A DNA stretch of 63,015 nt from a virus (lineage: Duplodnaviria > Caudoviricetes): IMG/VR virus record IMGVR_UViG_3300027983_000014, positions 1 through 63,015 of that record; one strand, 5' to 3'. The notes below the pieces were generated by a model that made no database searches, was not told where the DNA came from, and saw only the letters and a list, made by a program, of their open reading frames with translations. The first letter of the stretch is position 1; each line of letters starts with the position of its first letter. This document shows positions 1 to 43,705 of the stretch, piece by piece. The translations under genes and the position numbers were made by a program.

Positions 1-204
1 GTCCGGCGGGATGTTAGTACCGACAGCAAGCTTTGCCAAGGTGATGGCGTAATCTTCAATCCCGGCCGTCGGGACCTGACTGCCTCGACCAGAGGCGTGA
101 TCGTGCTCGTCAACACGCGCCCAGTTGTCGGCAAGCTGTCCGCTATCGTAGGGATCAGTAGTAAGGTTCCAAACCTTAAGCCCTAAATTTGGCGTGGTAA
201 TCAT
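1..204 (-). CDS. Partial CDS running off the left edge; tail-fibre/virion-protein-like N-terminus
   Basis: ATG at 204 directly follows the amidase stop. Translates MITTPNLGLKVWNLTTDPYDSGQLADNWARVDEHDH...AITLAKLA, open to position 1; TPNLGL and ITxAKLA motifs are typical of fibre proteins. Confidence 0.6.
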   Translation of the reverse strand, partial: MITTPNLGLKVWNLTTDPYDSGQLADNWARVDEHDHASGRGSQVPTAGIEDYAITLAKLAVGTNIPPD

Positions 205-1044
205 TTAGACAAAAAGCTTCTTCCAAGTCTCTTTCCCCACTATACCATCAACGGTAAGCTTTTTAGACTTTTGGAATTTTTTAACGGCGGCTTCTGTTTT
301 GGCACCAAATTTGCCGTCTGCTTGGACCTTAAGCTTTTTCTGAATCGCCTCTACGCTCTTGCCTTTGCCACCGAACCTAAGTGTGCGGCCGGGGAATCTA
401 GGCGGGGTTGGTGAGGATTTGGGCTTAGGCTTAGGCTTGGTCGGGGCAGGAGCAAGGGTCCCGCCTGTGTCAGGCTTGGGCTTGGGCTTGACTGCGGCCT
501 TGCCGTCCCGAATTTCTTTGGCGAGCTTGAGCACATGCTGGAACGGATAGCCTTCTCCGCAGTCGCCATGGTTCCCTCCCTCGGCGCCAAGGTAAGAGTG
601 TTGAACGACTCCCGAAAGCAAGACCTTGCCCTTAAACACTCGGCCCCTGCGGATTGGGATGTTATGCTCCTTAGACCAGTAAACGATCCACTCTGCGGTG
701 TTCCGCAACTGCTTCTGATTCTCTTTGAGCCATGTCGATTGAGCAGTAGCCGCAAAGCCGATTTGCTCGATGTTCAAAGAGGCGCTGTTATAGGCCGCGC
801 AGGTCCATGCTTTCTTGCGATCATCGACAAAGCGCGCATCGTTACCCTCAGCGTCATTGCCAACGTGCGAAGAGGCTTGAGCAGACGGATTGCTGAACCA
901 GCTCGCCAAGTTCTTTAAGTCCTCAAGACCCGGGCGATTATGTCCTTCGGTCGTATGCAATACGATTAGCCGGATCTTAGATCCCGGCTGGCGCTCGGAC
1001 TGGTTGGTTACGTAGTTTGTGACTTCTGGTTTGGGGGTCATCAT
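205..1044 (-). CDS. Endolysin: N-acetylmuramoyl-L-alanine amidase (Amidase_2-like) with C-terminal peptidoglycan-binding domain
   Basis: IVLHTTEG, ASSH, AW-x-C, SLNIE and H...HGDCG amidase motifs; PKPKP linker; DGKFGAKTEAAVKKFQ...VDGIVGKETW PG-binding repeat. Confidence 0.9.
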   Translation of the reverse strand: MMTPKPEVTNYVTNQSERQPGSKIRLIVLHTTEGHNRPGLEDLKNLASWFSNPSAQASSHVGNDAEGNDARFVDDRKKAWTCAAYNSASLNIEQIGFAATAQSTWLKENQKQLRNTAEWIVYWSKEHNIPIRRGRVFKGKVLLSGVVQHSYLGAEGGNHGDCGEGYPFQHVLKLAKEIRDGKAAVKPKPKPDTGGTLAPAPTKPKPKPKSSPTPPRFPGRTLRFGGKGKSVEAIQKKLKVQADGKFGAKTEAAVKKFQKSKKLTVDGIVGKETWKKLFV

Positions 1045-1087
1045 CCATTACTCCGCAGGTAACGGCCCATTGTTAGGAGAAGCCAGA

Positions 1088-1176
1088 AGGCGACGGCGGT
1101 TTGCCACTCCGCGACTCGCTGGTATACCAGTGCTCTTTTGAAGGAAGACGCCTTCAGGACTCTGAGCTACGTCGCC
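1088..1176 (-). ncRNA. tRNA-like RNA (pseudo-tRNA or tRNA mimic) lacking a canonical anticodon loop
   Basis: 7-bp acceptor stem GGCGACG/CGTCGCC; TAGCTCAG...AGAGC D-arm with an inserted hairpin; CTGG-TATA-CCAG mini anticodon arm; GCGG/CCGC T-like arm; no encoded CCA. Confidence 0.65.
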
Positions 1177-1184
1177 AGCCCTAT

Positions 1185-1193
1185 AGTATAGCA
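1185..1193 (-). promoter_or_regulatory. Extended -10 promoter (TGC-TATACT) upstream of the tRNA-like RNA
   Basis: TGnTATACT lies 8 nt upstream of the acceptor-stem 5' end. Confidence 0.55.
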
Positions 1194-1197
1194 GAAC

Positions 1198-1428
1198 CTA
1201 AAGCAGAATGCGAAGAACTTGATCTTTGGTTGCGCCTGAGTCAAGAAGCTGGCGTACATGATGATGGTCAACCCGGATGGCATAGCGTCGGTTGACCTCT
1301 CCCTTGACCACCGAGGTCCGGAAAGAATCGGACAGCTTGGCCGCATCCTCGTTAGAGAACCCTAGCTCTGCAATCAACATCACTCGATATTCTTCCAGCG
1401 ATGTCATGTTGGTGTCGGTAGTTGCCAT
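1198..1428 (-). CDS. Hypothetical protein (76 aa)
   Basis: ORF fits the operon; AGAGAGGG upstream. Confidence 0.6.
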   Translation of the reverse strand: MATTDTNMTSLEEYRVMLIAELGFSNEDAAKLSDSFRTSVVKGEVNRRYAIRVDHHHVRQLLDSGATKDQVLRILL

Positions 1429-1451
1429 TGTCTGTTGCCCTCTCTGGCAGA

Positions 1452-1646
1452 TCAGTCTTTCAGATTTTGCTCTGCCCTAACCTTTTGAGGCGGGATGACA
1501 GAGAATGCAGCGTATAATGCTAGCAATGCTACCACAACCCCAGTCAGCGACAAGCTGAGGCCGGGATCGATGACCCGAGCCGCGACTAAAGCGCTTAGTG
1601 TTGCTGCCACTACGCCTTTCAGTGCTTCCACTTTTGATTTGTTCAT
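1452..1646 (-). CDS. Putative holin (2 TM segments, 64 aa)
   Basis: MNKSKVEALKGVVAATLSALVAA...LTGVVVALLALYAAFSV: two hydrophobic helices, GGGGAG RBS, located between two lysins. Confidence 0.65.
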   Translation of the reverse strand: MNKSKVEALKGVVAATLSALVAARVIDPGLSLSLTGVVVALLALYAAFSVIPPQKVRAEQNLKD

Positions 1647-1657
1647 TGTTCTCTCCC

Positions 1658-2113
1658 CTATTTCTTCTTTTTTGCAGCTTTGTAACGGGCAAACCAATAT
1701 GTTGCGCGTGGAGTCATCCCTCCGCGAAACGTCATGTGCCATGGTTCCGACATCGCGTCTGAAGAAAGTTTTCCTCCTGCGATGCCCCACCTAAATCTAT
1801 GACCGTATTTTCTTACCATGGCTTGCATTTGGTCAGACGGCAAGTCGCAGGCCTTGCCCAGACCATGATTGCTGGTTCCGGGTCGAGCGGCTAGAGGTCC
1901 GTTGCCGTTTTGATAGTTGTTGTAGTACTCCACTTGCTTGGCGTAAGTCCTATACGCACTGTTAGGACCAGTTGGAGTAAGCCAGACCCCTGTTTCGCGG
2001 CCGATGAAGTATCTCATCGCCAAGTAGCTGCGTGCCGCTGCCCCAGAAGCAAGCCTTCCTCCCGGGATGCTGGTCAGAGCGCTACTAGGAAATTTTCCAT
2101 TTGAGTAACCCAT
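1658..2113 (-). CDS. M15 (VanY-like) peptidoglycan peptidase, second lysin
   Basis: SAYRTY-x-KQ, AARPGTSNHGLG-x-ACD and EPWH zinc motifs; AGGAG RBS. Confidence 0.85.
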   Translation of the reverse strand: MGYSNGKFPSSALTSIPGGRLASGAAARSYLAMRYFIGRETGVWLTPTGPNSAYRTYAKQVEYYNNYQNGNGPLAARPGTSNHGLGKACDLPSDQMQAMVRKYGHRFRWGIAGGKLSSDAMSEPWHMTFRGGMTPRATYWFARYKAAKKKK

Positions 2114-2166
2114 TTGTTCTCCTAATATTTACACCACGGAGCAAGGGTAAATTGTTTGCTAGCGAT

Positions 2167-2592
2167 TTAATAAATGTCCTTCACAAATTCATCGAAGCCT
2201 TCGAAGTCAGACATGGCCCCATCGGGATAACCGCCGTGACGCACCGGCAGGGCGTGTTTCTCTGCCACTTTAAGAACTGAGTCGCGCAATTGTGGGTGGG
2301 TTTCAATTATGGCAATCGGCTGGGCATACTCAGCCTGCCAATATGCCCCTCCCACGTCGACCTCGCCCCATCCCATGATGGCCACAACGATGTTGTTCTC
2401 GTTATCTTCTAAGCACAAGTTGGCTCGATATGTGCGGCAACCGATTTTGTCCTGACAGTAGAGCGGTTCTCCAACCGGCCAAACCTCAGCGGGCTTTTTT
2501 AGTGTCTTCAATTGGTGCCCGTTTGTATACCCAAACCACCGGATCCCGACCGCAGGTCGATCTTCAGTAATCGTATAAGTGGTTAAAGGCAC
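2167..2592 (-). CDS. Hypothetical protein (141 aa)
   Basis: ORF in operon. Confidence 0.55.
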   Translation of the reverse strand: MPLTTYTITEDRPAVGIRWFGYTNGHQLKTLKKPAEVWPVGEPLYCQDKIGCRTYRANLCLEDNENNIVVAIMGWGEVDVGGAYWQAEYAQPIAIIETHPQLRDSVLKVAEKHALPVRHGGYPDGAMSDFEGFDEFVKDIY

Positions 2593-2595
2593 GAT

Positions 2596-2916
2596 CTAAT
2601 TATACTCAATATCTACGATCTTGTATCGGCCGCCCGAGAAGACTTGAAGAAGCGCCGTCGTAGGGCCGTAAAAAGTGGCACTGTCGACTATCAGCGAGTA
2701 TGATCCGGGGATCACACTCAAAGTGGCGTTGCCGTCGCCGTCGGTAGTGGCGGTCGTGTCTGAATATGTGTCGCCAGTGACATTGGGCGTTCTGGCAGCT
2801 TCCCGAATGGTCACCGTGGCGCCATTGACATTGTCTGTCGTAAAGCGCTCTTTGACATTGATGGTAATGCTTTCGGATCCCGGAAGGATGTTGACGTAAA
2901 CTGTGTCGGCCATCAT
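2596..2916 (-). CDS. Small beta-sandwich (carboxypeptidase-regulatory-like) protein
   Basis: GATVTI...TTDGDGNATLSVIPGSYSL pattern. Confidence 0.5.
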   Translation of the reverse strand: MMADTVYVNILPGSESITINVKERFTTDNVNGATVTIREAARTPNVTGDTYSDTTATTDGDGNATLSVIPGSYSLIVDSATFYGPTTALLQVFSGGRYKIVDIEYN

Positions 2917-2953
2917 CCTTTACCGTCTTGCTGCGATAAGCGATCTAGCGCTA

Positions 2954-5900
2954 TCAGATTCCGCAGGACCCGCCTCGACACTTTTCTTCATCTTCTTCAA
3001 AGACTACGCCGATATGATTTATCGCCTGTTCATAAGGAACCGTTGTTAGGGGCTGACCACCACGGCTGCCGTCAGGATAGGCGGTTACGCCGCGAAGCTT
3101 AGGCAGATGCTTATAAAGCATGTCCGCAAACCCCTCGGCCTCCTTTTCATCCTCAATCGCGTAAGGCAGGTTGATAGTAGACGAAATTGCATGATCGACC
3201 CATTGCTGAACCCATGCTTGAAATACAACGCGCTTTTCCACATTATAAGACAAAGCATAAGCGTCTTCGATGCTGTCAGGGTCGACACCATCCCGCTCGA
3301 TCAATCTTTGAGCAGTCGGATCGATGACATATTGGTAGTTGACCTTGTCTTTCCCATTAGTCTGAGCGGTCCGGACGCGACGCTTGAAAGCAACAGCGAA
3401 AATCGGCTCGATGCCTGTAGTTGTCTCCGCAACAATTCCGATGGTGCCGGTCGGAGCGATTGCTCGCGTCTTAACCGGCCTGCTGAGATTGTGCTGATCG
3501 GCCCACTCGGCTGCGTGATCCGTAGACGAAGCATAGAGGTCTAGCCATCCGGCCAGCTCGTCATTCGGTCCGTATTCGTAGCCCTTCTTAAGAAGCCATT
3601 CGTGGATCCCCATGAGGCCTAGGCCAAGGCGTCTGTTCTTTTCACGAACGTCATGGACCTTGTCGTAGGGGAGATCTGAATACACCGTCCCGGCGACGAG
3701 GAAGAGCGTTCCGTATTTGACAAGATCTGCCATCTCTTCCTTACTTTCTACATTAGCCAGATTGATACTGCCCAAGTTGCAGACGTCCGAATCGTCATGG
3801 CTAGTTAATTCTGTGCAATTAGAAATGATCACACCTTCGGCCATAAACGAATGCTCCAAAGCGTGCACATCGGCACAATAAACGTCTTCAACGCCATCTT
3901 CTACAACCTCGATCACCTTCACGAAAGACTGACGGTAGGAGACATAGTCACCCATCTTGGGCTTTAGCCGATGTGTCGGGATGGTTTCAGCAAAATCTTT
4001 GTTTGAGTCCGAGGCGACAACCAATTGATGAATCTGGCCTTTGCCATTGGAGATATGAGACAGGATGCCAACCTGCTCAAGCGCCCTTGACACGCCCCTC
4101 AGGAACCCTCGGTGCTTGGAAGAAAGCCTGATTCTTTGTTGATTGCCTTCGTAGTTTCCGTCAGCATCAAATAAACCGGCGATGAATGATTTTATCGTGT
4201 CGCTATCAGCTTCGTAAAGATCTTCTGGGAACCGGTCTTTAGGGCGCCCAGACCATTTTTCATCAACGCTAAAGTAGAGACGCGTATAACCTCTGCTGTC
4301 AGATTCGTTGACTGAGGCCGCTCCTACAAGCGCCGGGGCGCAGGCCTTGGATTCTTCTGTACAAAGCGTAAGGTCCACTCCGCCAGCCTTATGGAAAGAC
4401 CCGTCTCCATAAATGAATCCGAGCGTATAAGCCTCTTTGTCAATTTGGGTGCTGACAGGGTCCGGCAGAGCGACATGCAGCCGGTCGCTAGGCCGAAGGT
4501 TCTTGGCCTTAACGCGCACGATGGCATCCAGCCTCCTTCTACTTTTGCCTAGCCCCACCCACTTCTCAACCAAGAATTCGTGGTCCGGCTCGCAACGGAT
4601 GTTCCGTCCGCCAGTCATTGTAACCTTGAAAATACGGGCATCTTCGTATGTCTTCGCGAAGACGACATTCTCGGCCCACCGCATCCCGGTCCACACCGTC
4701 GTGGGTTGGTCCACAATTGCCCCTACGGCCTTGTAGCCTTTGTCGGTCAGCACATGGGTCGCCGCCACTACTGGCGCATTCCTTAAGGTCTCGCCAGCAT
4801 TGTCTCCTACGTCAATACTTAGCCCCGGCTCGGCAGTTTTAACCATGTTCTCGACGGTCATTTTGTAGATCTTTTTGGCGATCTCGTGCTTGTCGTGCGA
4901 CTCGTCGTCGTAGGCTTGAAAGAATTCGTCATTGAGGAGAACAGAAATATTCGTGAACTCCATCTCGGCCGGGAAAGAGAAGTCCTTTTCTTTGATCGCC
5001 CGAATTTCATCCGGCCAATTCTTCATGTTGATGAAGTCTTCGCAGTCTTCGTGATCCCACCTAAGACCGGCCCAGATCGCGGAATTGTGAACAAGGTATC
5101 CGTTGGTTACGAATTCACTTTTATCCTCTACCTCGATGTCCCAAGTTTCGACAGAGCGGGCCGGTCCGATTCCAATAACCTTGACCGGAGTGAATGTTTG
5201 TGGACCAAAATCTTTCTCAATTTGGTCGATGGAGATTGATAAGTCGTCCTTGCGCTTGGTGCTAACAAGTTTTCTTGGCAGCGAATATGAATGCTGGCTC
5301 CCGGTGCGGGGAGTGTAGGCGGTCTTATGACCGATGCCTCCCACCATGTCTAGATAGAGTTTAACATTTTTGTTGCTAACAATGTTCAGATGATAGAGGG
5401 ACTTCCAGTTTCCTCGCTCTGATCGGACCAGACAGATCCGGCTTGCAACGCCCAGCGTTGAAAGGAGGATTTGGACTTCCTCAAGGTGTTCCTTGTAGAC
5501 CGATGAGGCAATATTAAACGGTCGAGTATCACAAGATCCGTCTGCGTCTTGTAAGCCAGCCACATAAGCCGCTCGGATTAGCGGTGAACCATTTTGGATA
5601 AATTTAGGAATCGATATGGAGACCCCGCTTTGCTTAAACTGAGACATGTAGGAAGCAAGCTGTACCGAATAGACCATGACAACCGAACAGTCTCCGTCAC
5701 CTTCTACGATCTTGACTCCCTCCGCCCACCTCGAAAGCTCACTAACGGCGGCTTCAATAATTTCTGGACGGTCGTTTGCGCAGGCGATACCGATCCTTCC
5801 ATGTCTTTTGGTCCCAGAACTATTGTCGTCGCGTAAGGATACGTGCCCGTCGCCATGGATCAAACCAAGAAGCCATGCAGACCCTTCATCAAGGTCTGGA

Positions 5901-6814
5901 ACGGTTATACTCTTTACCGACGCCAGCCGCATCGCACGCCAGCTTCCAAGTGCCGGTTTGTCGTATGTGTTTGCTGGCCAACAAGTATCTTGTCCTTCGG
6001 TACAAGCATTCACAAAGTAAAGACTGTCCCCATCTTCAAGGTCCCCCGCTTCTTTCCAAGAGTAGCTCCCGAGTCCGTCAAGAACTGCGACCCTGTGGTT
6101 TGAGGTGCACTCTAGTGCCCCATTCTGTGTTTTTACAAAAATTGTATCTTGGATGCCTTGATTAATAACCCCGGTTACTTTGCGATATCCATCAGAAGTC
6201 ATAACATTATCTCCGACCTGAACTTCAGAGATTGCCTTAGTTTCGTACTGGGTGTGAACGGGAGAATCAAATGGCAAGCACCTTCGAGCACCGCCCTGCA
6301 TGACGCCGCGACCAACCTCATTGACCATGCGCATCAAGCTCAAAGGCCCTGAGGCTACTCCGCCAGTACGACGGATACGGGAACCCGAACAGCGGACCTC
6401 GGAATAGTCTACACCGATACCAGCGCCCGTTTGTAACGCCATGGCCGACCTGTATAGAAGCTCTGCCCAACCCTCGCGACTGTCTTCAGCCTTAAGCAAA
6501 AGGCAATTTTGGATTTGATGAAGCCCTCTGCCGGATGCGTATAGATAACGACCACCGGGCATGAACTTGCGTTGCTCAATGAAAGATAAGATCTTCTGAA
6601 ACTCTTCGTCGTAAGGGCCGTAGCCGAGAGTGCCGAGGACGTTAGAAGTCACTCGAAGGGCTGTCTGTGGCCAATCTTCAACGACATTTCCATCTTCATC
6701 TCGCCAAGCGTATTTCTGTTCGTAGACGCTTCTGGCGAACTCGCTCATCTTGGTCTTGGTCTTGGTCTCTGGAGCCTCTGTCTTTTCTGGCTCCGCTACA
6801 TCTGGTGGCATCAT
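2954..6814 (-). CDS. nrdJ: Class II (adenosylcobalamin-dependent) ribonucleotide reductase with two inteins; about 568 aa after splicing
   Basis: FMPGGR, NCLL, GIGVDYS, GGARR|SA, RNA|CTE catalytic motif, CNLGSINL, RRLGLGLMG, IAPTGT, C-terminal CRGGSC. No class I YY pair and no nrdB in the window. Confidence 0.9.
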   Translation of the reverse strand: MMPPDVAEPEKTEAPETKTKTKMSEFARSVYEQKYAWRDEDGNVVEDWPQTALRVTSNVLGTLGYGPYDEEFQKILSFIEQRKFMPGGRYLYASGRGLHQIQNCLLLKAEDSREGWAELLYRSAMALQTGAGIGVDYSEVRCSGSRIRRTGGVASGPLSLMRMVNEVGRGVMQGGARRCLPFDSPVHTQYETKAISEVQVGDNVMTSDGYRKVTGVINQGIQDTIFVKTQNGALECTSNHRVAVLDGLGSYSWKEAGDLEDGDSLYFVNACTEGQDTCWPANTYDKPALGSWRAMRLASVKSITVPDLDEGSAWLLGLIHGDGHVSLRDDNSSGTKRHGRIGIACANDRPEIIEAAVSELSRWAEGVKIVEGDGDCSVVMVYSVQLASYMSQFKQSGVSISIPKFIQNGSPLIRAAYVAGLQDADGSCDTRPFNIASSVYKEHLEEVQILLSTLGVASRICLVRSERGNWKSLYHLNIVSNKNVKLYLDMVGGIGHKTAYTPRTGSQHSYSLPRKLVSTKRKDDLSISIDQIEKDFGPQTFTPVKVIGIGPARSVETWDIEVEDKSEFVTNGYLVHNSAIWAGLRWDHEDCEDFINMKNWPDEIRAIKEKDFSFPAEMEFTNISVLLNDEFFQAYDDESHDKHEIAKKIYKMTVENMVKTAEPGLSIDVGDNAGETLRNAPVVAATHVLTDKGYKAVGAIVDQPTTVWTGMRWAENVVFAKTYEDARIFKVTMTGGRNIRCEPDHEFLVEKWVGLGKSRRRLDAIVRVKAKNLRPSDRLHVALPDPVSTQIDKEAYTLGFIYGDGSFHKAGGVDLTLCTEESKACAPALVGAASVNESDSRGYTRLYFSVDEKWSGRPKDRFPEDLYEADSDTIKSFIAGLFDADGNYEGNQQRIRLSSKHRGFLRGVSRALEQVGILSHISNGKGQIHQLVVASDSNKDFAETIPTHRLKPKMGDYVSYRQSFVKVIEVVEDGVEDVYCADVHALEHSFMAEGVIISNCTELTSHDDSDVCNLGSINLANVESKEEMADLVKYGTLFLVAGTVYSDLPYDKVHDVREKNRRLGLGLMGIHEWLLKKGYEYGPNDELAGWLDLYASSTDHAAEWADQHNLSRPVKTRAIAPTGTIGIVAETTTGIEPIFAVAFKRRVRTAQTNGKDKVNYQYVIDPTAQRLIERDGVDPDSIEDAYALSYNVEKRVVFQAWVQQWVDHAISSTINLPYAIEDEKEAEGFADMLYKHLPKLRGVTAYPDGSRGGQPLTTVPYEQAINHIGVVFEEDEEKCRGGSCGI
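3818..4774 (-). mobile_element. Intein 2 (319 aa, LAGLIDADG endonuclease), atypical Pro1 / block-F Cys, inserted just before the RNR catalytic Cys
   Basis: RNA|PVVAATHVLT...CEPDHEF...LGFIYGDG...IAGLFDADG...VYCADV...GVIISN|CTE. Confidence 0.85.
5084..6280 (-). mobile_element. Intein 1 (399 aa, canonical class 1, LAGLIDADG endonuclease)
   Basis: GGARR|CLPFDS...CTSNH...LGLIHGDG...VAGLQDADG...TWDIEV...LVHN|SA. Confidence 0.92.
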
Positions 6815-6964
6815 ACTGATCTCTTTTCTGACTTCTATATGTCGCAGACTTATGTCGCGTAACCGTTAGTGGTCGTCCAGCCTTTAGTTGCAGTGGAAAG
6901 CTAGCTTGCTCAAAGCATCCGCAGAGTCTATCAAACTGAATCTAAGATTGAGGCTTGACACGCA

Positions 6965-6973
6965 TGGTATAAT
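6965..6973 (+). promoter_or_regulatory. Extended -10 promoter TGG-TATAAT
   Basis: Perfect TATAAT preceded by TG; the nearby TTGACA (6955-6960) is too close to act as its -35. Confidence 0.55.
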
Positions 6974-6979
6974 CGCGCA

Positions 6980-7265
6980 CGGGAGCGCGTAGCGCGCCCG
7001 CGCACTGGGCCTCATAGTGAGCGTAAACTACAACTATTATGTTGTTTAGATTTTAGAGACACTACAGATAGAATTTTTAGAGAATTTAGATTTGCGTGCT
7101 AACTCATTAGCAACGTTTCCCACAGACCAATGTTTCCCGCCAGCGCAAACGTCCAGTTTGGGGAAACACTTGCATAGCTTCAGTTGGTCTGCTACAGTCG
7201 TCCTGTTGGTAGTTAGTGCCTCCTCGGGAAACGCCTCGGCATGCTGTCGGGGCGTTTTTCTGTTT
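6980..7265 (+). ncRNA. Candidate structured non-coding RNA or attenuator leader
   Basis: Lies between a promoter and a terminator. Nested inverted repeats CAGACCAA/TTGGTCTG, TGTTTCCC/GGGAAACA and CGTTTCCC/GGGAAACG; no convincing ORF. Confidence 0.45.
7228..7265 (+). terminator. Intrinsic terminator
   Basis: AAACGCCTCGGCA-TGC-TGTCGGGGCGTTT hairpin followed by TTCTGTTT. Confidence 0.7.
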
Positions 7266-7269
7266 GGGC

Positions 7270-7298
7270 TTCCAATCTTCGGAGGTTGCTGCTAACAT
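7270..7298 (+). promoter_or_regulatory. Leaderless promoter for the replication operon
   Basis: TTCCAA-17 nt-TAACAT with TG extension; ATG 6 nt downstream. Confidence 0.5.
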
Positions 7299-7304
7299 CC
7301 GGTT

Positions 7305-7625
7305 ATGGAGCTTCGCCCATATCAGGCGTGCAGGACTTCAGAGGGCTGGTGGCCAGTTGAAGTCGAGTCGTCAAGAGGCGACGGATCGAAGTATGTCGTC
7401 ATGGTTTGTCCATGGGGCAACGCTGTCGAGAACATCTGCGAATGTGCCGGATACACATATCGCGGGGGCTGTCGGCATCAAACCGAAGCGATGGATGCAC
7501 TTTGCGGCTGGATGGAAATCCATGATCCGCAAAAGTATGTCCAGACAGACGATCAACGACGACTAAAGGTCTGCCCTTGTTGCGGAGGACCGACGGTTTG
7601 GAAAATGGAGGTAGAGGATGAGTAA
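7305..7625 (+). CDS. SWIM zinc-finger protein
   Basis: CECAGYTYRGGCRH (CxC...CxH) plus CPCCG. Confidence 0.75.
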   Translation: MELRPYQACRTSEGWWPVEVESSRGDGSKYVVMVCPWGNAVENICECAGYTYRGGCRHQTEAMDALCGWMEIHDPQKYVQTDDQRRLKVCPCCGGPTVWKMEVEDE

Positions 7626-8172
7626 TCTCGATACGGTCACAGAACAATTGGCCACGGCCTACAAAGGATGGAAGTCTGGCGAGAAAGCCAAGAACAAGCT
7701 TCGCGATGAATTCTTTGAGGCTGTCGACTCGCAAATAACAAATGGCAATCTGGCCGAAAAGTATTCGAGCGTGGATGCCCCAGATGAACTTTCGGCCCGG
7801 GACCGGTTCAAGAAACAGAACCCGACTTGGGTGATAACTGAAATCCGAAAAGGCGAAGGGGATGTCTGGGAAGCCGTGCTGACCGAGAACCCGGAGTTCG
7901 TCGCCTTCACCTACGTCAACAAGGATCTAGGCGTCGTATTTCAGAAGCAGGTCAGCTCCGGGTCGGTTTACATTGACGATGAAAGGCTTGCCGAGGAAAA
8001 CCCCGATCTCTATGAGGACGTGACGTTTGTCCCAGAGCCAGAGCGGAGACTTAAAGACCTTGAAAGCCTCCCTCCGAATCTGCTTGCCAAGCTGGCTGAT
8101 TACATCTATGAAGGTCGGCCTACCGTCAAGTTGGCCGCTCCTCGCAAGGCGAAGGATGAAGAGCTTGAATAA
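7618..8172 (+). CDS. Hypothetical protein (184 aa)
   Basis: Coupled ORF with GGAGG upstream. Confidence 0.7.
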   Translation: MSNLDTVTEQLATAYKGWKSGEKAKNKLRDEFFEAVDSQITNGNLAEKYSSVDAPDELSARDRFKKQNPTWVITEIRKGEGDVWEAVLTENPEFVAFTYVNKDLGVVFQKQVSSGSVYIDDERLAEENPDLYEDVTFVPEPERRLKDLESLPPNLLAKLADYIYEGRPTVKLAAPRKAKDEELE

Positions 8173-36911: not shown

Positions 36912-38309
36912 TCAATCCGCTTGCGTTGAGAGCACCCCGGCCCTTACCATCCCGGCACTAGCGTTTTGGCGTGTTCCCATCTTGGCATCGGCTGGAGCGA
37001 CAAATTTGACCTGAGTCTCAAAGCCAGTCTCGTAATCGAAGGTGTGAGTGACCTCGTCAACATACATTTGCAAGTCATGCTGAGGGAAGCGCACAATGCC
37101 GCCGGGATAAATCTCAGGCATAAAGGTGAGCGAAAAGTCTGCGTTAAACTGCTGGCTCCACATCAAAGAAAACTTCTGGTATGCCAAGAAGGTCTCATAG
37201 TAAGGGGAACGGACCATCGGGGCCTCTTCGAAATGCGGACGAGCGCCGTACTTGCGTAAAAACGCGATGGCTTTATGTTTCTCAGCTAGCGTAGGGCTGT
37301 CCAGAGAGACAGGAGGCTCGTCTGGTTTATCGCCATCTTCGCCGATCTGAACGGCATTCTCGTCTTTCGGATTCATAAAGCCCGCTGCAAATGCGTCAAA
37401 AACTGTAACGATCCCGTTAGTCTGAACGCGATCAAACATGTTGACGCCATCATAAAGACCAGCGATGTCACCAACCACATAAACATGAGTGGCTAAAGCA
37501 TCATCTGTTAAGTCGACCTGACCGCTCAGTATTTCGATGTCTTCGATATCCCAGTAGGGAGTTCTATGATTTTGTCCCCCGAAGTAGTCTGGGTAAAAGG
37601 CAAAAAAGTCGCCATTCGGCAAAGACTGGATGTTCCGCAAGCAAGCCTGAGCAAGCTGTTGCACAAATGGGAACAGGGGCTGATCATTCATAAGCGACTT
37701 CTTGCCGCGAAGAGCCAGACTTTCTACGTTATTAAAAAGTCCGGGAAGATCAATATAAGTTACAAAGGCAGTGGATTTAGAAAGTTTTTCGACGGTCCGA
37801 AGGTCTACTCCTCCTTCCGGGGTTCCCGGGGTAGCCGATTCCTCGTCCGACCCGGTCCGAGGCGAAAACCCATTTGTGCTACGAGCCTCTCGCCAACCAA
37901 CAGGAATGAGCTTGTTGCCGCTACCGCCAGACTCAGCGAACTTCCTGCCACCGTCCATCTCGAAAGTCATAAACGCGTGTGAGTCACTCGGATTACCGGG
38001 GATTTCGTTCACCCAAACCGTGAACTCCTTACCTTCCCCAGCCTTACCCCACACATTCAAGCCGGTAGTCGTCTGAGGCGATGTGAGCAAGCCACCAGCG
38101 TTCAACACAGACGAAACGAACCCGGAGCAATCGTACCCGTTCGGATCATTGAAGCTACCGTGGCCGCCACCCCACAAGTACAACTGCTGTCTCTTATGGA
38201 TTTCGTCAACACGAGCAATCATCCGCTCAACAAGCGCGCTTGACTGATTGGCTGGCTGCCCGCGAGGACCAGTAGTGGAACCTTCATGGTTGCGATCAAT
38301 CGCTGGCAT
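36912..38309 (-). CDS. Baseplate hub C-half paralogue 3 with N-terminal NlpC/P60 peptidase
   Basis: YLWGGGH...YDCSGFVS...H; shared C-region ESLALRG..SL.NDQPL...FMPEIYPGG. Confidence 0.8.
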   Translation of the reverse strand: MPAIDRNHEGSTTGPRGQPANQSSALVERMIARVDEIHKRQQLYLWGGGHGSFNDPNGYDCSGFVSSVLNAGGLLTSPQTTTGLNVWGKAGEGKEFTVWVNEIPGNPSDSHAFMTFEMDGGRKFAESGGSGNKLIPVGWREARSTNGFSPRTGSDEESATPGTPEGGVDLRTVEKLSKSTAFVTYIDLPGLFNNVESLALRGKKSLMNDQPLFPFVQQLAQACLRNIQSLPNGDFFAFYPDYFGGQNHRTPYWDIEDIEILSGQVDLTDDALATHVYVVGDIAGLYDGVNMFDRVQTNGIVTVFDAFAAGFMNPKDENAVQIGEDGDKPDEPPVSLDSPTLAEKHKAIAFLRKYGARPHFEEAPMVRSPYYETFLAYQKFSLMWSQQFNADFSLTFMPEIYPGGIVRFPQHDLQMYVDEVTHTFDYETGFETQVKFVAPADAKMGTRQNASAGMVRAGVLSTQAD

Positions 38310-39862
38310 TACTCTTCGCTTCCTTGCAATCGCATCGACCCCGCCCTGATCATCCCTTCGTGAGCCTTCAGGCGGCCCACACGGTTCCCGTCGCCACTGT
38401 TGATGGCTGCCGGGGCGCTTAGCTGAGCTTTAGTCATGAACCCCTGCTCCATGTCTGCGATATGTTCGACTGAATCGATATAGCATTGGATGCCATGAGA
38501 CGGAAAAGATACTATGCCGCCGGGATACAGCTCGGGCATGTAGGTAAACGTGAAGCCTGTGACAAACTGTCGTGACCACATCAGCATGAACGTTTGGTAG
38601 GCAAGAAAGACTTCGAAGTAGGGGGAGCGGACCATTGGGGCTTCTTCAAAGTATGGACGGGCGCCGTACTTGCGCAAAAACGCCAGCGTTTCGTCTACGG
38701 CAGCTTTAGCCTGCGCTGACGGCGGGTTACCATCTTCTGTTTCTATGCTTTCATCGTTGCCAGTATCGTCTTTTAGGGCCACCTGCCCTGCCGGACTGAA
38801 ATTGTCTGATATGAAGTTTGACTGGAAGGCCTCAAACACTGAAATAACCCCAGCAGTTTGAATCTTGTCAATCAGATTCACTCCATCGAAGTTGGCGATG
38901 TCACCAACTACATATACATGGGTCGCCAAACTGTCGTCAGTCAATTGCATATTGGCGTCAATAATTTCGATGTCTTCAATTTCCCAGTATGGCGTTCTAT
39001 GATTAAGGCCGCCAAAGTAGTCCGGATAAAAGGCAAAGAACCCCCCGTTTGGCAAAGATTGAAAGCTTCTAAGAGAGGCCTTGCACAACTGCTGGACAAA
39101 CGGAAGGAGCGGTTGATCGTTCATAAGGGATTTTTCTCCCCTAAGGGCTAGCGATTCCGCCATTTCCATAATGCCGGGAAGATCAATGAAAGTTGCAAAT
39201 GCAGCGGCTTTAGCAGTCCCGATGATTTGTTCAAGAGAGGCCGTGTCCACATCGGCATCAGTAGAGCTTGGGGCCGTGTCACCAAGTTGGACGACCTCTC
39301 CGTTTTGGGCGCCTTTGACCCAGCTTGTTGGGTCAGTGTTTCCGTTTCCGCCCGGACCATACCGAGCGCTCCCCGGCTTGGAAATGAACATGTGGATATG
39401 CTGGCTTCCGCCAAGGCTTCCCGTTCTGCCAAGCGGCGTCCCGGCCGGGACCTTTTGTCCCTTCTGAACGCGCACAGAGGACGGAAGCATGTGGCCGTAA
39501 CCAAGATATGAGCGGGCGGGCAAGCCCGTCTCTTCGGGCTTAGTTGGAGTGATACTAACCATCGCTTTACCCGTTCTTGATCCTGACCCCGTGTACCAGC
39601 TCTTGTCCACTGTCGCGATTTCACAATCAAACGCCGCAACTAGAACCGATCCGACATCACACACAACATCGACCCCACGATGGCCGCCCGAGTAGTTAGA
39701 GCGTGCGGCTCCATATTCGCATCCGCTACAGTTGCCGACGGCCTTCGCCCCTACGCTTGGTATAGGCCTGACTACGGCAGAAGGGCTGTCTGGCTGCCCG
39801 CGAGGACCGTCTGGCTGCGCACGAGGATAACGAGGAGCCGCTGGTCTAGTAGGTCCGGGCAT
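38309..39862 (-). CDS. Baseplate hub C-half paralogue 2 with N-terminal divergent M23 peptidase
   Basis: HRGVD, YGHM, V.KGQKV..G..LG.TG...HIH; shared C-region. Confidence 0.8.
   Translation of the reverse strand: MPGPTRPAAPRYPRAQPDGPRGQPDSPSAVVRPIPSVGAKAVGNCSGCEYGAARSNYSGGHRGVDVVCDVGSVLVAAFDCEIATVDKSWYTGSGSRTGKAMVSITPTKPEETGLPARSYLGYGHMLPSSVRVQKGQKVPAGTPLGRTGSLGGSQHIHMFISKPGSARYGPGGNGNTDPTSWVKGAQNGEVVQLGDTAPSSTDADVDTASLEQIIGTAKAAAFATFIDLPGIMEMAESLALRGEKSLMNDQPLLPFVQQLCKASLRSFQSLPNGGFFAFYPDYFGGLNHRTPYWEIEDIEIIDANMQLTDDSLATHVYVVGDIANFDGVNLIDKIQTAGVISVFEAFQSNFISDNFSPAGQVALKDDTGNDESIETEDGNPPSAQAKAAVDETLAFLRKYGARPYFEEAPMVRSPYFEVFLAYQTFMLMWSRQFVTGFTFTYMPELYPGGIVSFPSHGIQCYIDSVEHIADMEQGFMTKAQLSAPAAINSGDGNRVGRLKAHEGMIRAGSMRLQGSEE
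38874..38938. repeat. 65-bp exact direct repeat (second copy 40517-40581) inside hub C-half genes
   Basis: AGATTCACTCCATCGAAG...CCAAACTGTCGTC is identical at both loci. Confidence 0.9.
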
Positions 39863-39865
39863 TAC
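39807..39865. repeat. 59-bp exact direct repeat (second copy 41363-41421) covering the start of two hub C-half genes
   Basis: CCGTCTGGCTGCGCACGAGG...GGTCCGGGCATTAC is identical at both loci. Confidence 0.9.
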
Positions 39866-41418
39866 TCTCCTTTTACACTCGGAGGAGCTGGGGACGGACC
39901 ATTGCCCACCGTAGGAGCCTTGTTCATTGCCATGCTCCCGGCTCTAATCATTCCCTCATGGGCAGAAAGGTTGCCAGTTCTAACGGTTTGCCCATTCTGA
40001 TTTCGCGTGATGGCTGCCGGGGCACTTAACTGCGCGGTTGTGTGGAAGCCGCTTCCAAAGTCGGCGACATGGCTGACTGAATCGATATAGCACTGTATCC
40101 CGTGCCGAGGAAACGAAACGATGCCCCCCGGATACAGCTCGGGCATATACGTGAACTCAAACGTAGTCACAAACTGTCGTGACCACATCAGCATGAACTT
40201 TTGATAAGCAAGAAAAGCCTCGAAGTAGGGGGAGCGGATCATTGGAGCTTCTTCGAAATAGGGACGGGCGCCATACTTCTTCAAAAAGTTGATGGCCTGC
40301 TCATTATTAATGTTAATTTGAGCGCTAGAATCATCTTTGTACTTATTGTTATCCTGATTGTCGCTCATTGGCTTTCCTGCAAGGGGTCCGTGATGGTACG
40401 GATCTGCTTCAATTTCAGTTTGGTCGCTTGTCGCAGAGGTCGGGTTGCCAGACAGGAAGTCTGCTTGAAATGCAGTAAAAACTGTGGCCACTCCGCCACT
40501 TTGGATTTTGTCGAATAGATTCACTCCATCGAAGTTGGCGATGTCACCAACTACATATACATGGGTCGCCAAACTGTCGTCTGAAAGATCAATCTCTCCG
40601 TTCAATATTTCGATGTCTTCAATCTCCCAGTATGGGGTCCTATGATTGAGGCCGCCAAAGTAATCGGGGAAGAAAGCAAAGAAGCCTCCGTCTGGCAGCG
40701 ACTGAAAATTACGTAGCGATGCTGCACATAGCTGCTGCACGAAGGGCATGAGCGGCTGATCGTTAAGAAGAGACCTTTCGCCTCGCAAAGCCATCGACTC
40801 TGCCATATCCATAATGCCGGGGACGGCGATGAATGTGGCAAAGGCGCTAGCCTTGGCGACCCCGGCAATTTGGGCGAGGGTGGCTTGAGTGGCGTCGTCG
40901 CCCGGAACCGCCGCGCCCCCGTCTTGTGTGTCCGAGCCATCAAGCCACGGCTCAGGGTCAACCAACGTGCCATTACGCTTTAGACCAAAGTGCAGGTGCG
41001 GCCCGGTGGAGTTGCCCGTGCTCCCAACCGCACCGATGGTGTCGCCCTTCTTAACGCCCTTTCTAACCTGAACAGACATCTTACTAAGGTGCAGATATTG
41101 TGTGACAGTCCCGCCGCCATGATCAATTTCAATCATCTTGCCCGCGTCGCCTGCTATCGCGGCAAAAGTAACACGTCCGTCTTTGACGGCAAAAACGGGC
41201 GTCCCTTCTGGAGCTTGGATGTCGATGCCTTTATGATCGCTAGACGCTCCGGCAGTAGGCGAAGTCCTAGGTCCGAAGTCAGAACCGTCGCCTGTGCCCA
41301 TTTTGTATTTGCCGGGGACAGGCCACATGGGCTTGTTGCTCTCAGTCGGCGGAGTTCGAGGGCCGTCTGGCTGCGCACGAGGATAACGAGGAGCCGCTGG
41401 TCTAGTAGGTCCGGGCAT
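39862..41418 (-). CDS. Baseplate hub C-half paralogue 1 with N-terminal canonical M23 peptidase
   Basis: HKGID, YLHL, GSTGNSTGPHLHF; shared C-region. Confidence 0.85.
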   Translation of the reverse strand: MPGPTRPAAPRYPRAQPDGPRTPPTESNKPMWPVPGKYKMGTGDGSDFGPRTSPTAGASSDHKGIDIQAPEGTPVFAVKDGRVTFAAIAGDAGKMIEIDHGGGTVTQYLHLSKMSVQVRKGVKKGDTIGAVGSTGNSTGPHLHFGLKRNGTLVDPEPWLDGSDTQDGGAAVPGDDATQATLAQIAGVAKASAFATFIAVPGIMDMAESMALRGERSLLNDQPLMPFVQQLCAASLRNFQSLPDGGFFAFFPDYFGGLNHRTPYWEIEDIEILNGEIDLSDDSLATHVYVVGDIANFDGVNLFDKIQSGGVATVFTAFQADFLSGNPTSATSDQTEIEADPYHHGPLAGKPMSDNQDNNKYKDDSSAQININNEQAINFLKKYGARPYFEEAPMIRSPYFEAFLAYQKFMLMWSRQFVTTFEFTYMPELYPGGIVSFPRHGIQCYIDSVSHVADFGSGFHTTAQLSAPAAITRNQNGQTVRTGNLSAHEGMIRAGSMAMNKAPTVGNGPSPAPPSVKGE

Positions 41419-42560
41419 TACCGATACTTGCCCCAGCCGCCGCCGTCTCCGGCATTACGTGAAGACTCCCATGGCTGCATCCCGCCCGACTTGAAGAGGG
41501 AGAGAGCCGCCTTGGCGTTGTTGAAAGGGTTGCGCATGTCGCCATGTAAGCGGACTAGATCCGGATGCACCTTAACATAAATTTGCCACAAGCCCTCGCA
41601 GCCGATGCTGTTAACCAGACCGGGCTTGAGTGATGACTCAGCGAAGGCCACGCGACGAAATAGCTTTGCGTCCTTCTCGCTAAAGCCAACATACTTCGCT
41701 ATAGAAAACACCTGACTGGGGTCCAAAACGTCAGACCCATTTTCAGGGTACACTCGATCTAGGCCTTGGAGTTCAGCATCTTGGACATTGTTGTCCCCGC
41801 TATCACCACCACCATTGTCAAGTGCGCTGCCGTAAGACCCGCCACCGAGCGCCCCCTCCAAGAAATAATTGAGGTCGGCGCGGGCCGACGCCTCGGCCGT
41901 TAATGCCATTTCCTTGTAGATGTTTTCTACGGTGTCGACGATGCCGTCAGGCAAACTTTCAATGAAAATTGTTTCATCAGACCAGCCGCCGATTTCAATA
42001 AGTGTGTCAAATAGCAATCCGCCTATCGAACCATCGGTTTGCTTTACATACGGGGTTCCGTCGGGCCTGAACTTTTTCGCAGGGGCTGTTTCTTCTTGGG
42101 GATTTGTGATTCCGCCAAGCTGCGCGTTGACCTGCCACCCGTGAGACTGAAGAAACTCCCAAACAAAAGGAAGCCCCGGATCGAAATAGGTGTAGAGAAG
42201 GCGCTTAATAGTGCAACTGGCTTTGATCTTGCATGTCCCGGGGAATAGCTGGATGTACGGGGTCGTATCACAAAACCCAGTGAACACTTGCATGGGCCGA
42301 TCTTTGATCCTAGTCATTGTGATCACGATAGGGTCCATGGGATGGAAAATTGGTCCCCGTGTCGACGTCTTTGAAACCGAGTCGTAAGTCTTGCTGTCCG
42401 TCCAGATAAACTGAGGGTTGCGGAACTCTACTTCGGCCGTGCTGACTGCGTCGATTTGGCGATTAACCGAACAGCTTGTCACGTAGGGGCTTAGATCGTA
42501 AATGCCAGAATCTGTTTTGACAAATACATCGACTCTTGGAGTGTAAACTAGGCGTTTCAA
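41418..42560 (-). CDS. Baseplate hub N-half paralogue 2 with C-terminal SLT/lysozyme-like transglycosylase
   Basis: MKRLVYTPRVD N-region; VAFAESS...GLWQI...NPFNNAKAA...G.QPW. Confidence 0.8.
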   Translation of the reverse strand: MKRLVYTPRVDVFVKTDSGIYDLSPYVTSCSVNRQIDAVSTAEVEFRNPQFIWTDSKTYDSVSKTSTRGPIFHPMDPIVITMTRIKDRPMQVFTGFCDTTPYIQLFPGTCKIKASCTIKRLLYTYFDPGLPFVWEFLQSHGWQVNAQLGGITNPQEETAPAKKFRPDGTPYVKQTDGSIGGLLFDTLIEIGGWSDETIFIESLPDGIVDTVENIYKEMALTAEASARADLNYFLEGALGGGSYGSALDNGGGDSGDNNVQDAELQGLDRVYPENGSDVLDPSQVFSIAKYVGFSEKDAKLFRRVAFAESSLKPGLVNSIGCEGLWQIYVKVHPDLVRLHGDMRNPFNNAKAALSLFKSGGMQPWESSRNAGDGGGWGKYR

Positions 42561-43705
42561 TCTGCTCTCCTAATCTCTACGTCCCCTTTGCCCGAGAACT
42601 TAAGGGCCTTGGTGATTCCCGGTTCAAGGTCGATTTTATAATGTGCGTCACCCGCTTGCCCCGAGCCGTTGTCTACCTTAGTGATGAACCAAGTCTTGCT
42701 GGGTTTTTTGGGGTCTCGAATCTCTAGCTTAAAGCGGCATTTCAAACCGGTCGGGGTCCCGTCGGTCACTTCGCCCTTGATATCAAACAAATCCGCTAAA
42801 AACCCTCCGTTACGGGCCAATTTCAATTTTTTATTGGTGCCAGCAACGCCCAGTTCAGCATAACTGAATCCATTGTTCTTGGCTTCGTTCCCGCAGGAAA
42901 CATCTCCTCCGCTGTAATCATCCGTAGTGGCCCCAACCTTAACCCATTCGCCCTTGCCGACCCCAGACGTAACCGATCCGCCATCCTCATTCACAGCGTA
43001 GCCGCTTAGTGTGGCGGTCCCAATCATTTCTTTTAGCAGGAGTTTGATGTCTTTGAATGCTTCTTCGCTGGTCGTTTCGCGATCCGTGACCATGGCGGCC
43101 ACTAAGCTGATGATGCCCTCTGGTAATCCTTCTATGAAAATGGATTCAGGATCCCAGCCGCCGATTTCATTCAACACATCAAACAGTAGTTTGCCAATGC
43201 TTGCGTCATTTAGGCGAAGGGATTCATCTTCTACGCTTTTTTCTCCGCCGAGCTGCGTCAAGCCGGTTTGAGTATTAGTTTGCCAACCCTTTTCCTCAAG
43301 CCAAGTGTGGACAAAAGGAAGTCCCGGATCGAAGTAAGTATAAAGAAGTCGCTTCAATGTGCAAGAAGCGGTTAGTTCTACAACGCCCGGGTAAGCGGAG
43401 ATGTAGGGGGTCGTGTCTAGGAACCCAGTGAACACCTGCATAGGACGATCTTTGATGCGGGTAAGCGTAACGGTGATCTTATCCATAGGATGGAACACGG
43501 GAGCCAAAACCTTAGACCCATCGGAGTCTGTGCGCTCGCCATCGGTCCACATAAACTGCGGATTGCGCAGCGTTAAGTTAACCGTACTGACGGCGTTCTG
43601 GCGGCGAGTGACGCTACCCTTAGTGATGTATGGGCTGACATCATACAAACCCGTGTCAGTCTGAATAAAGGCGTCGACCCTAGGAGTGTAGACGAGTCTT
43701 TTCAT
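42557..43705 (-). CDS. Baseplate hub N-half paralogue 1 with C-terminal RlpA-like double-psi beta-barrel
   Basis: MKRLVYTPRVD N-region; VGAT...AEL...LKC..KLEI...KVDNG...IDL...KAL...G.VEI. Confidence 0.72.
   Translation of the reverse strand: MKRLVYTPRVDAFIQTDTGLYDVSPYITKGSVTRRQNAVSTVNLTLRNPQFMWTDGERTDSDGSKVLAPVFHPMDKITVTLTRIKDRPMQVFTGFLDTTPYISAYPGVVELTASCTLKRLLYTYFDPGLPFVHTWLEEKGWQTNTQTGLTQLGGEKSVEDESLRLNDASIGKLLFDVLNEIGGWDPESIFIEGLPEGIISLVAAMVTDRETTSEEAFKDIKLLLKEMIGTATLSGYAVNEDGGSVTSGVGKGEWVKVGATTDDYSGGDVSCGNEAKNNGFSYAELGVAGTNKKLKLARNGGFLADLFDIKGEVTDGTPTGLKCRFKLEIRDPKKPSKTWFITKVDNGSGQAGDAHYKIDLEPGITKALKFSGKGDVEIRRAD

Follow-up and report, generated by a model that had tools for sequence, protein, structure and literature searches.

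A tRNA-shaped element without an anticodon loop, probably derived from a tRNA gene, ahead of the endolysin gene of a Caudoviricetes virus

The locus described here lies on a 63,015-nucleotide (nt) stretch of viral DNA (Duplodnaviria; Caudoviricetes), hereafter the window, which is the entire IMG/VR record IMGVR_UViG_3300027983_000014 and was judged 39% complete. Between an endolysin gene and a small conserved gene, orf76, both on the minus strand, an intergenic spacer of 153 nt holds an 88-nt element (1089–1176, minus strand) with the fold of a tRNA cloverleaf. A preliminary description, made from the sequence alone, had presented positions 1088–1193, which comprise the element proper plus an extended -10 promoter motif, as a promoter-driven tRNA mimic lacking an anticodon loop and situated inside the lysis cassette. 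Downstream lies the endolysin gene itself (205–1044, minus strand), which encodes a 279-amino-acid (aa) N-acetylmuramoyl-L-alanine amidase with a peptidoglycan (PG)-binding domain (Pfam Amidase_2, 3.4e-12; PG_binding_1, 2e-14) and has homologues at 70–78% BLASTP identity (P0002–P0010). Upstream, the stop codon of orf76 (76 aa; 1198–1428, minus strand) is 21 nt ahead of the element; this open reading frame (ORF) matched no Pfam or PHROG family. It is preceded on the same strand by a 64-aa protein with two hydrophobic stretches (1452–1646), which may be holin-like and whose locus gave no Pfam or PHROG match to the longer ORF present there, and by a 151-aa VanY-type peptidase (1658–2113; Pfam VanY, 4.1e-08) that would act as a second lysin. 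The claimed lysis-cassette setting is thus borne out, with the amidase on one side of the element and the VanY-type peptidase and small hydrophobic protein on the other, within a region (205–6814) where coding is wholly on the minus strand.

The minimum free energy (MFE) structure of the element obtained with RNAfold was exactly the cloverleaf that had been drawn by eye, and a descriptor scan agreed that it is tRNA-shaped with an intact acceptor stem and D-stem. On the minus strand, the acceptor stem comprises 7 base pairs (bp; 1170–1176 with 1089–1095) and the D-stem 4 bp (GCTC/GAGC; 1164–1167 with 1132–1135), followed by an anticodon-arm remnant of 4 bp closed by a 4-nt TATA loop (1119–1130), a 6-nt variable region (1113–1118) and a T-arm remnant of 4 bp with a 9-nt loop (1096–1112). 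The D-loop contains an extra 6-bp hairpin (1139–1156). All 25 of the 25 pairs in these helices are Watson-Crick, and the junctions have tRNA spacing: TA (2 nt) between acceptor and D-stem, a single A (1 nt) between D-stem and anticodon arm, and 0 nt between T-arm and acceptor. Fold and descriptor scan together gave canonical tRNA geometry throughout, except that the T stem has four pairs and not five. The letters of the tRNA core are likewise kept, namely T8, A9, GCTC, A14, G15, A21, GAGC and A26; CCA is not encoded.

The loops, as the preliminary description had also recognized, are remodelled. In place of the canonical 5-bp anticodon stem and 7-nt loop the element has the 4-bp stem and TATA loop; the elbow consensus is missing, as the 9-nt T-loop has no TTCRA and the D-loop no GG. 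Judged by these features, the element cannot decode. Both novelties are perfect helices (the 6-bp hairpin and a 12-nt palindrome), and the T-loop region is altered at most positions with no stem pair broken. This pattern of intact stems, helical novelties and altered loops fits selection acting on the helices; selection for shape, as first proposed, would be read from a single sequence. The D-loop hairpin had no second copy in the window or in any locus compared, and a repeated mobile hairpin was rejected as the source of the insert on that account.

The extended -10 motif TGCTATACT (1185–1193, minus strand) was recovered by a promoter scan, and its hexamer ends 8 nt ahead of the first acceptor base, as first reported, with the motif starting at -17. 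A weak -35-like TTCGCA (1209–1214, minus strand) lies inside the end of orf76 at an 18-nt spacer, picked out by consensus match alone. Taken by themselves such motifs are unremarkable: promoter-like sites in 1–8000 occurred at a chance number (6 against 6.4 expected), and the 9-mer GTAGCTCAG alone showed no enrichment in the window. From the usual distance between a -10 element and the start site, the first transcribed base would lie no more than about 3 nt from the acceptor stem, and in a transcript begun at this promoter the cloverleaf remains the predicted MFE fold. On its other side the element is joined to the amidase start by a 44-nt linker (1045–1088, minus strand), in which a GGAG (1051–1054) lies 6 nt ahead of the amidase ATG. 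The linker also contains a 9-codon upstream ORF (1042–1070, minus strand) that ends in ATGA overlapping the amidase start and has no obvious ribosome-binding site. No minus-strand intrinsic terminator was detected in 1045–1200, where no minus-strand hairpin is followed by a T-run; the sole terminator-like site in that interval is on the plus strand (1117–1132 plus a T-rich tail).

Standard tRNA detectors did not recognize the element, in line with the low or pseudogene-level score that had been anticipated. ARAGORN reported 0 tRNAs in the window, also at relaxed thresholds, and Rfam gave no match at gathering score in the window and none at E <= 10 in 900–1400. The tRNA-like domain of tmRNA and YrlA, non-decoding RNAs that mimic part of a tRNA, likewise had no Rfam match to the element. 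Unlike these RNAs, it lacks G3:U70 (pair 3:70 is C:G), a T-loop consensus, an mRNA-like part and a long Ro-binding stem. The chance expectation was estimated with a descriptor that specified a cloverleaf whose junctions are spaced as in tRNA, applied to both strands of the 63-kb window. When only Watson-Crick pairs were allowed, the element was the sole site on either strand, and none of 150 dinucleotide shuffles of the window contained any site. When G-U pairs were allowed, the descriptor found 6 folds in the window against 5.6 ± 2.9 in 40 shuffles.

The setting of the element was compared across related viruses, of which 80 contigs were available with head-protein identities of 49–100%. Thirty of the longer related records were searched; the amidase was matched in seven of these, and five carrying the VanY domain (G012, G001, G006, G014 and G004, corresponding to L311–L315) were compared over 14–19 kb. 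In these five the VanY domain forms the N-terminus of a LysA-like open frame of 450–469 aa. The window and the relatives have a common order of the ribonucleotide reductase (RNR) gene, VanY, orf76 and the tail-fibre N-terminus, as well as of genes beyond RNR, and orf76 homologues (∼36% identity) are syntenic in G012 and G004. In all five relatives a tRNA array extends from RNR to the tail fibre and encloses the lysis genes. ARAGORN found 12, 3, 5, 6 and 13 tRNAs in the five arrays (39 in total, and the same 39 by Rfam), numbers equal to the tRNA counts of the whole records. The window has the matching protein genes, zero canonical tRNAs and one tRNA-shaped element between orf76 and the lysin. 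A related record without any tRNA, G011, was considered as a further comparator and discarded as too distant (RNR 35% identical).

Where these arrays can be read gene by gene, tRNAs punctuate the lysis genes. The order in G004 is tRNA-Leu(UAA), 32 nt, LysA, tRNA-Thr, 28 nt, a holin-like gene, tRNA-Lys, tRNA-Gln, orf76, a 255-aa ORF, tRNA-Gly and the tail fibre, such that each of the lysin, holin-like, orf76 and tail-fibre genes comes right after a tRNA. In G012, tRNA-Leu(UAA) ends ∼31 nt ahead of LysA. The tRNA with a UAA anticodon at the lysin is 75 nt long in G012 (L311:10739–10813) and G001 (L312:11889–11963) and 85 nt in G004; the 75-nt form is missing the long variable arm, which makes for an unusual leucine tRNA. 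The LysA of G004 had at best weak matches to Arthrobacter-phage endolysins among named phages.

The tRNA genes of these relatives also carry the promoter. A TGnTAnnnT motif starts 14–21 nt upstream of 16 of the 39 tRNAs, compared with 0.46 expected from the motif background in those loci, and the exact TGCTATACT stands ahead of tRNA-Arg in G014 and tRNA-Leu(UAA) in G004. The window has six strict matches to TGnTAnnnT, some of them just upstream of other genes. Based on this comparison, the promoter predicted upstream of the element appears to be real and typical of the lineage. The extended -10s of the relatives' tRNA genes end 6–10 nt ahead of the mature 5' end, which implies that the precursor tRNAs of this lineage would be nearly leaderless. 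Where ends were read, CCA is not encoded in the relatives' tRNAs either, and its absence from the element is therefore lineage-typical and no sign of decay.

Set beside the lineage's array tRNAs, in particular the promoter-tRNA-Leu(UAA)-LysA units of G004 and G012 and tRNA-Thr(UGU), the element lies in the same region between RNR and the tail fibres with the same strand logic. It has the same extended -10 at the same distance, a lysin ∼30–45 nt downstream, the same 7-bp acceptor stem, TA spacer, GCTC/GAGC D-stem and junction spacing, and no encoded CCA. Unlike them, it lacks both the 7-nt anticodon loop and the T-loop consensus, has a 4-bp T stem and a D-loop hairpin, is missed by ARAGORN and Rfam, and is followed by an amidase and not by LysA.

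A covariance model (R1) was built from the element alone with its fold and was run with filters off. It aligned full-length, with four arms in register, to most of the 15 ARAGORN tRNAs in the array of an unrelated phage (L187) and to many of the relatives' 39 tRNAs. The best match was tRNA-Thr(UGU) of G012 (26.5 bits, E 8.5e-5 over 90 kb), which is identical to the element at 13 of its 15 first bases and differs from it in the acceptor stem at two pairs, each altered on both sides. The core letters, the lineage's tRNA promoter, the position in an array and this mutual recognition with true tRNAs lead us to conclude that the element very probably derives from a tRNA gene of the lineage's array that had its own promoter. 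The combination of the core letters with the promoter, synteny and tRNA-recognition evidence also places it above a chance fold. An integration-site remnant was set aside, as the cloverleaf is complete and not the 3' part of a tRNA; no integrase was noticed nearby, and none was searched for.

Direct homologues of the element were sought in several ways. Nucleotide-level comparison of the element and its surrounding region with 50,697 phage records returned nothing useful, and blastn-short and nhmmer searches of the spacer against 88 loci returned the element itself only. Exact and gapped patterns run on viral contigs yielded no relative, one unrelated analogue and three chance matches that are not tRNAs. 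Searches of viral contigs with the neighbouring proteins gave PG-binding-domain matches or 51–58% relatives only for the amidase and no close relative for VanY, and alignment searches with orf76 gave only the two relatives already found. In metagenome contigs the best amidase was 62% identical, and ARAGORN found no tRNA at any of the 20 closest amidase loci. The stretch itself is present in freshwater, estuary and microbial-mat sequencing runs, with no RNA run among those listed; four read runs gave two short, identical contigs that do not cover the element, with no variants in them.

We tentatively favor the reading in which the element has been kept as a cis-acting processing or stability signal in the 5' leader of the endolysin message. 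The phage would have lost the region's canonical tRNAs and retained one unit consisting of an extended -10, a tRNA-shaped RNA, 44 nt and the amidase. Decoding would have been lost as the anticodon loop was cut to 4 nt, the T-loop consensus disappeared and a hairpin was added inside the D-loop. In a transcript begun no more than ∼3 nt from the acceptor stem, this stem and the T stem would form 11 stacked pairs that might still be seen by host RNase P or RNase Z, enzymes that mainly read the acceptor/T-arm stack. Alternatively to cleavage, these stacked pairs could simply cap the 5' end of the message; 5'-terminal helices stabilize bacterial mRNAs. Where tRNAs punctuate protein genes, mRNA ends would depend on tRNA processing, and once decoding was no longer needed only the parts read by processing enzymes, or capping the 5' end, would be kept. 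By either route the 5' end of the amidase mRNA and its stability would be set, in the manner of plant mitochondrial t-elements, with a possible effect on lysis.

This leader role is favored because a unit of promoter, tRNA, short spacer and lysin exists in the relatives. The spacer was also counted in its favor: at 153 nt it is set among gaps of ∼20–55 nt between neighbouring genes in 1–7000, where space is otherwise not idle. The closest described precedent is provided by the t-elements of plant mitochondria, where tRNA-like structures at the ends of mRNAs signal cleavage by RNase P or RNase Z (PMC1920247). They too are tRNA-shaped, non-decoding and placed beside the end of a protein message in a tRNA-punctuated genome, and the element, a non-decoding tRNA-like fold beside a predicted mRNA end, has the same placement. 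They belong to a different biological system, however, and for the phage element cleavage is a proposal. The tRNA-tufB operon of Escherichia coli and the mascRNA of MALAT1 follow a comparable plan, in which a tRNA or tRNA-like RNA is co-transcribed with a longer RNA and then cut off by tRNA-processing enzymes. The tufB operon tRNAs, however, are fully functional, and mascRNA sits at a eukaryotic 3' end with a more tRNA-like elbow. A literature search for a tRNA-derived leader ahead of a phage lysin found none described, which is no proof that none exists. Among the roles offered in the preliminary description, the synteny agrees best with that of an element for processing the amidase mRNA. A decoy for anti-tRNA defence nucleases or synthetases would be expected to keep the D-loop and T-loop consensus, which the element lacks.

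Several observations weigh against the leader. The elbow formed by the T-loop and D-loop, on which RNase P and RNase Z normally rely as well, is remodelled in the element, and the T stem has four pairs, not five. The case is built from a single sequence. R1 found no convincing copy in the 30 related records, where its best two matches (E ∼0.08) scored about as high as the reverse strand of the element, and in 30 loci around related lysins it found true tRNAs only. The amidase of the window is not orthologous to the catalytic part of the relatives' LysA; since the PG-binding domain alone matches, the promoter-tRNA-lysin parallel is one of architecture and not of strict orthology. The folding energy of the element is ordinary (z = -1.33; 20 of 200 shuffles fold as well). 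The predicted MFE structure of a longer read-through RNA breaks the acceptor stem, at a very low ensemble frequency. Lastly, a plain relic flanked by a promoter and a gene that are both needed would give the same picture.

That relic is the strongest competitor of the leader, and a possible if less probable account. It holds that the element is a tRNA pseudogene stuck between a promoter and an amidase gene that are both still needed, with no role of its own, and that erosion may have proceeded by a few large events, such as deletion of the anticodon loop, palindromic insertion into the D-loop and replacement of the T-loop. Three such events would suffice for loss of function. The tRNA number across the 30 related records ranges from 0 to 44, and seven of the eight that are at least 90% complete have 28–44 tRNAs while one has none; with 3–13 in the five VanY-type relatives, tRNA content is so variable that tRNA loss must be frequent in the lineage. 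Every canonical tRNA of the region has been lost in the window. The relic is further consistent with the failure of the element in every tRNA detector, its ordinary folding energy and the absence of a copy from the 30 related records. The preliminary description had counted ordinary tRNAs at this place in relatives, without compensatory changes, as evidence against itself; ordinary tRNAs do occur at equivalent places, so that this objection holds in half and makes the relic a serious rival. On the other hand, fully Watson-Crick helices, novelties that are themselves perfect helices and a T-loop that changed while the stems stayed whole are unlikely under unselected point decay. The region's other tRNAs, moreover, are gone without trace, leaving gaps of ∼20–55 nt as if idle DNA had been removed.

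Another account, which we consider unlikely, has the element acting in trans as an anticodon-less tRNA mimic. A ∼90-nt RNA that is neither usable nor cleavable would bind a host factor that recognizes tRNAs, the candidate targets being a tRNA-targeting defence nuclease, a processing or modification enzyme, or a synthetase. The promoter of its own and the tRNA-like ends suit such an RNA, and phage tRNAs have been proposed to evolve anticodon loops that escape host anticodon nucleases (PMC10264068).

Searches of viral contigs for comparable genes bear on the mimic. A first pattern, which combined the D-arm flanks of the element with an oversized D-loop, recovered one true analogue, an 87-nt gene (L187:10213–10299) with a D-loop hairpin, a 5-bp stem and 4-nt loop at the anticodon position, a canonical T-arm and an encoded CCA. 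It lies inside the tRNA array of a complete 191-kb phage whose head protein is not shared with the window, and the presence of such a gene in an unrelated phage speaks for the mimic. The same array contains a tRNA-like gene with a 7-bp anticodon stem and a 13-nt loop (L187:10410–10492), followed by an ORF that by eye resembles a peptidyl-tRNA hydrolase. A second pattern, requiring an ordinary D-arm and T-loop with too few bases between them, gave at least 120 matches (L191–L310), at least 53 of which have another ARAGORN tRNA within 1 kb. Among the matches listed, at least 93 have intact acceptor and T stems, and 73 of those 93 have no usable ARAGORN call (60 none and 13 'tRNA-???'). D-loops are ordinary in 71 of the 73, and these genes make up at least 57 distinct sequences; among the matches listed, at least 39 have a stem of 4 bp or more with a loop of 5 nt or fewer in the anticodon region, and at least 21 encode CCA. 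Examples include L243:1094–1162, L263:427–497, L285:2255–2320 and L237:7576–7646, and the anticodon-truncated genes tested score as tRNA in Rfam. Thus, phage contigs commonly contain tRNA bodies that have no usable anticodon loop, and the trans-acting account stays alive for that reason. A literature search for anticodon-truncated phage tRNA-like genes found none described, which again does not prove that none exists.

A recurrent family of 16 loci was observed among these genes (e.g. L298:938–1006, L207, L232 and L304). Its anticodon region is near-constant and contains a Shine-Dalgarno-like AGGAGG, while its acceptor and T stems vary with compensating changes. At L298 an Rfam abiF RNA motif (41.9 bits; 895–931) lies directly upstream of the tRNA-like gene, and by eye the upstream sequence of L298 is common to L274 and L290.

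The element resembles the anticodon-truncated genes in having a tRNA body with a loop of 3–5 nt in place of the anticodon loop, but the likeness ends there. Those genes have canonical D-loops and a GGTTCRA T-loop and, where tested, an Rfam tRNA score above threshold, none of which applies to the element; many also encode CCA or lie within 1 kb of another tRNA, and it does neither. The homology seen between them and the element is that of the general tRNA core. Because its D- and T-loop consensus is lost and it occupies a leader position, the element is best kept apart from this class. For the same lack of consensus it is unlikely to form the usual elbow. The anticodon loop, which is the main feature read by anticodon nucleases, is absent from the element. 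Its position 44 nt ahead of a gene, and not in an array, is that of a leader and likewise counts against the mimic.

A combined view, which we regard as doubtful, would make the element an exapted tRNA gene that works as an RNA switch or decoy tied to lysis, an extreme member of a widespread anticodon-less phage class that engages the host tRNA machinery without decoding. In that case tRNA-processing enzymes or tRNA-targeting defences would gate endolysin expression.

A function for the plus strand, as an antisense RNA to the lysis leader or as a plus-strand terminator, is highly improbable: that strand does fold better (-37.8 kcal/mol, z = -3.16, 0 of 200 shuffles as good), since four A-C mismatches of the minus strand become G-U pairs, and it bears the site flagged by the terminator scan, but no plus-strand gene lies upstream or nearby, the junction spacing (2, 1 and 0 nt), core letters and promoter fit the minus strand only, and R1 scores 16.5 bits on it against 120.8 on the minus strand. 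Equally improbable, and close to refuted, is an origin unrelated to tRNA, as chance inverted repeats or regulatory hairpins (an attenuator or terminator) in the spacer; the chance rate of G-U-allowed cloverleaves, the weak energy z-score and the fact that one find from a very large scan could be chance are outweighed by the empty all-Watson-Crick shuffles with the tRNA core letters on top, the lineage's correctly spaced tRNA promoter, a location occupied by a tRNA array in relatives, the true tRNAs retrieved by R1 and the lack of T-runs after the minus-strand hairpins.

The remainder of the window helps to place the phage. Its products include a tail sheath, a major head protein, a DnaE-type polymerase and a DnaB-type helicase, and the head protein shares ∼55% identity with its counterparts in myoviruses of Mycobacterium, Gordonia and Rhodococcus (137–165 kb; e.g. 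Myrna and Phabba). The phage is an actinophage-like myovirus. The RNR ORF (1286 aa; 2954–6814, minus strand) has insertions at approximately residues 179–577 and 688–999 with LAGLIDADG-like motifs; these are missing from all five relatives, whose matching segments are contiguous, and the two insertions are most likely two inteins. Three tandem paralogues (465, 517 and 518 aa) occupy 36912–41418 (minus strand), the first of which matches a virion structural protein family, and a further paralogue pair lies at 41418–43705 (minus strand); both sets stand out as long direct repeats that have diverged.

Should the leader reading hold, the locus would exemplify how a tRNA gene becomes nothing more than a signal for the processing or stability of a lysis-gene RNA, with the ancestral state, in which tRNAs punctuate the lysis genes, still visible in the relatives. 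Expression of a lysis gene would then be tied to the host's tRNA maturation enzymes, a control point that we did not find described for phage lysis, and the idea of tRNA punctuation and t-elements would extend from mitochondria to phages. Elements of this kind are invisible to tRNA finders, which calls for caution in annotation. The genes with truncated anticodon arms may matter more widely still, as they bear on the question of what phage tRNA genes are for.

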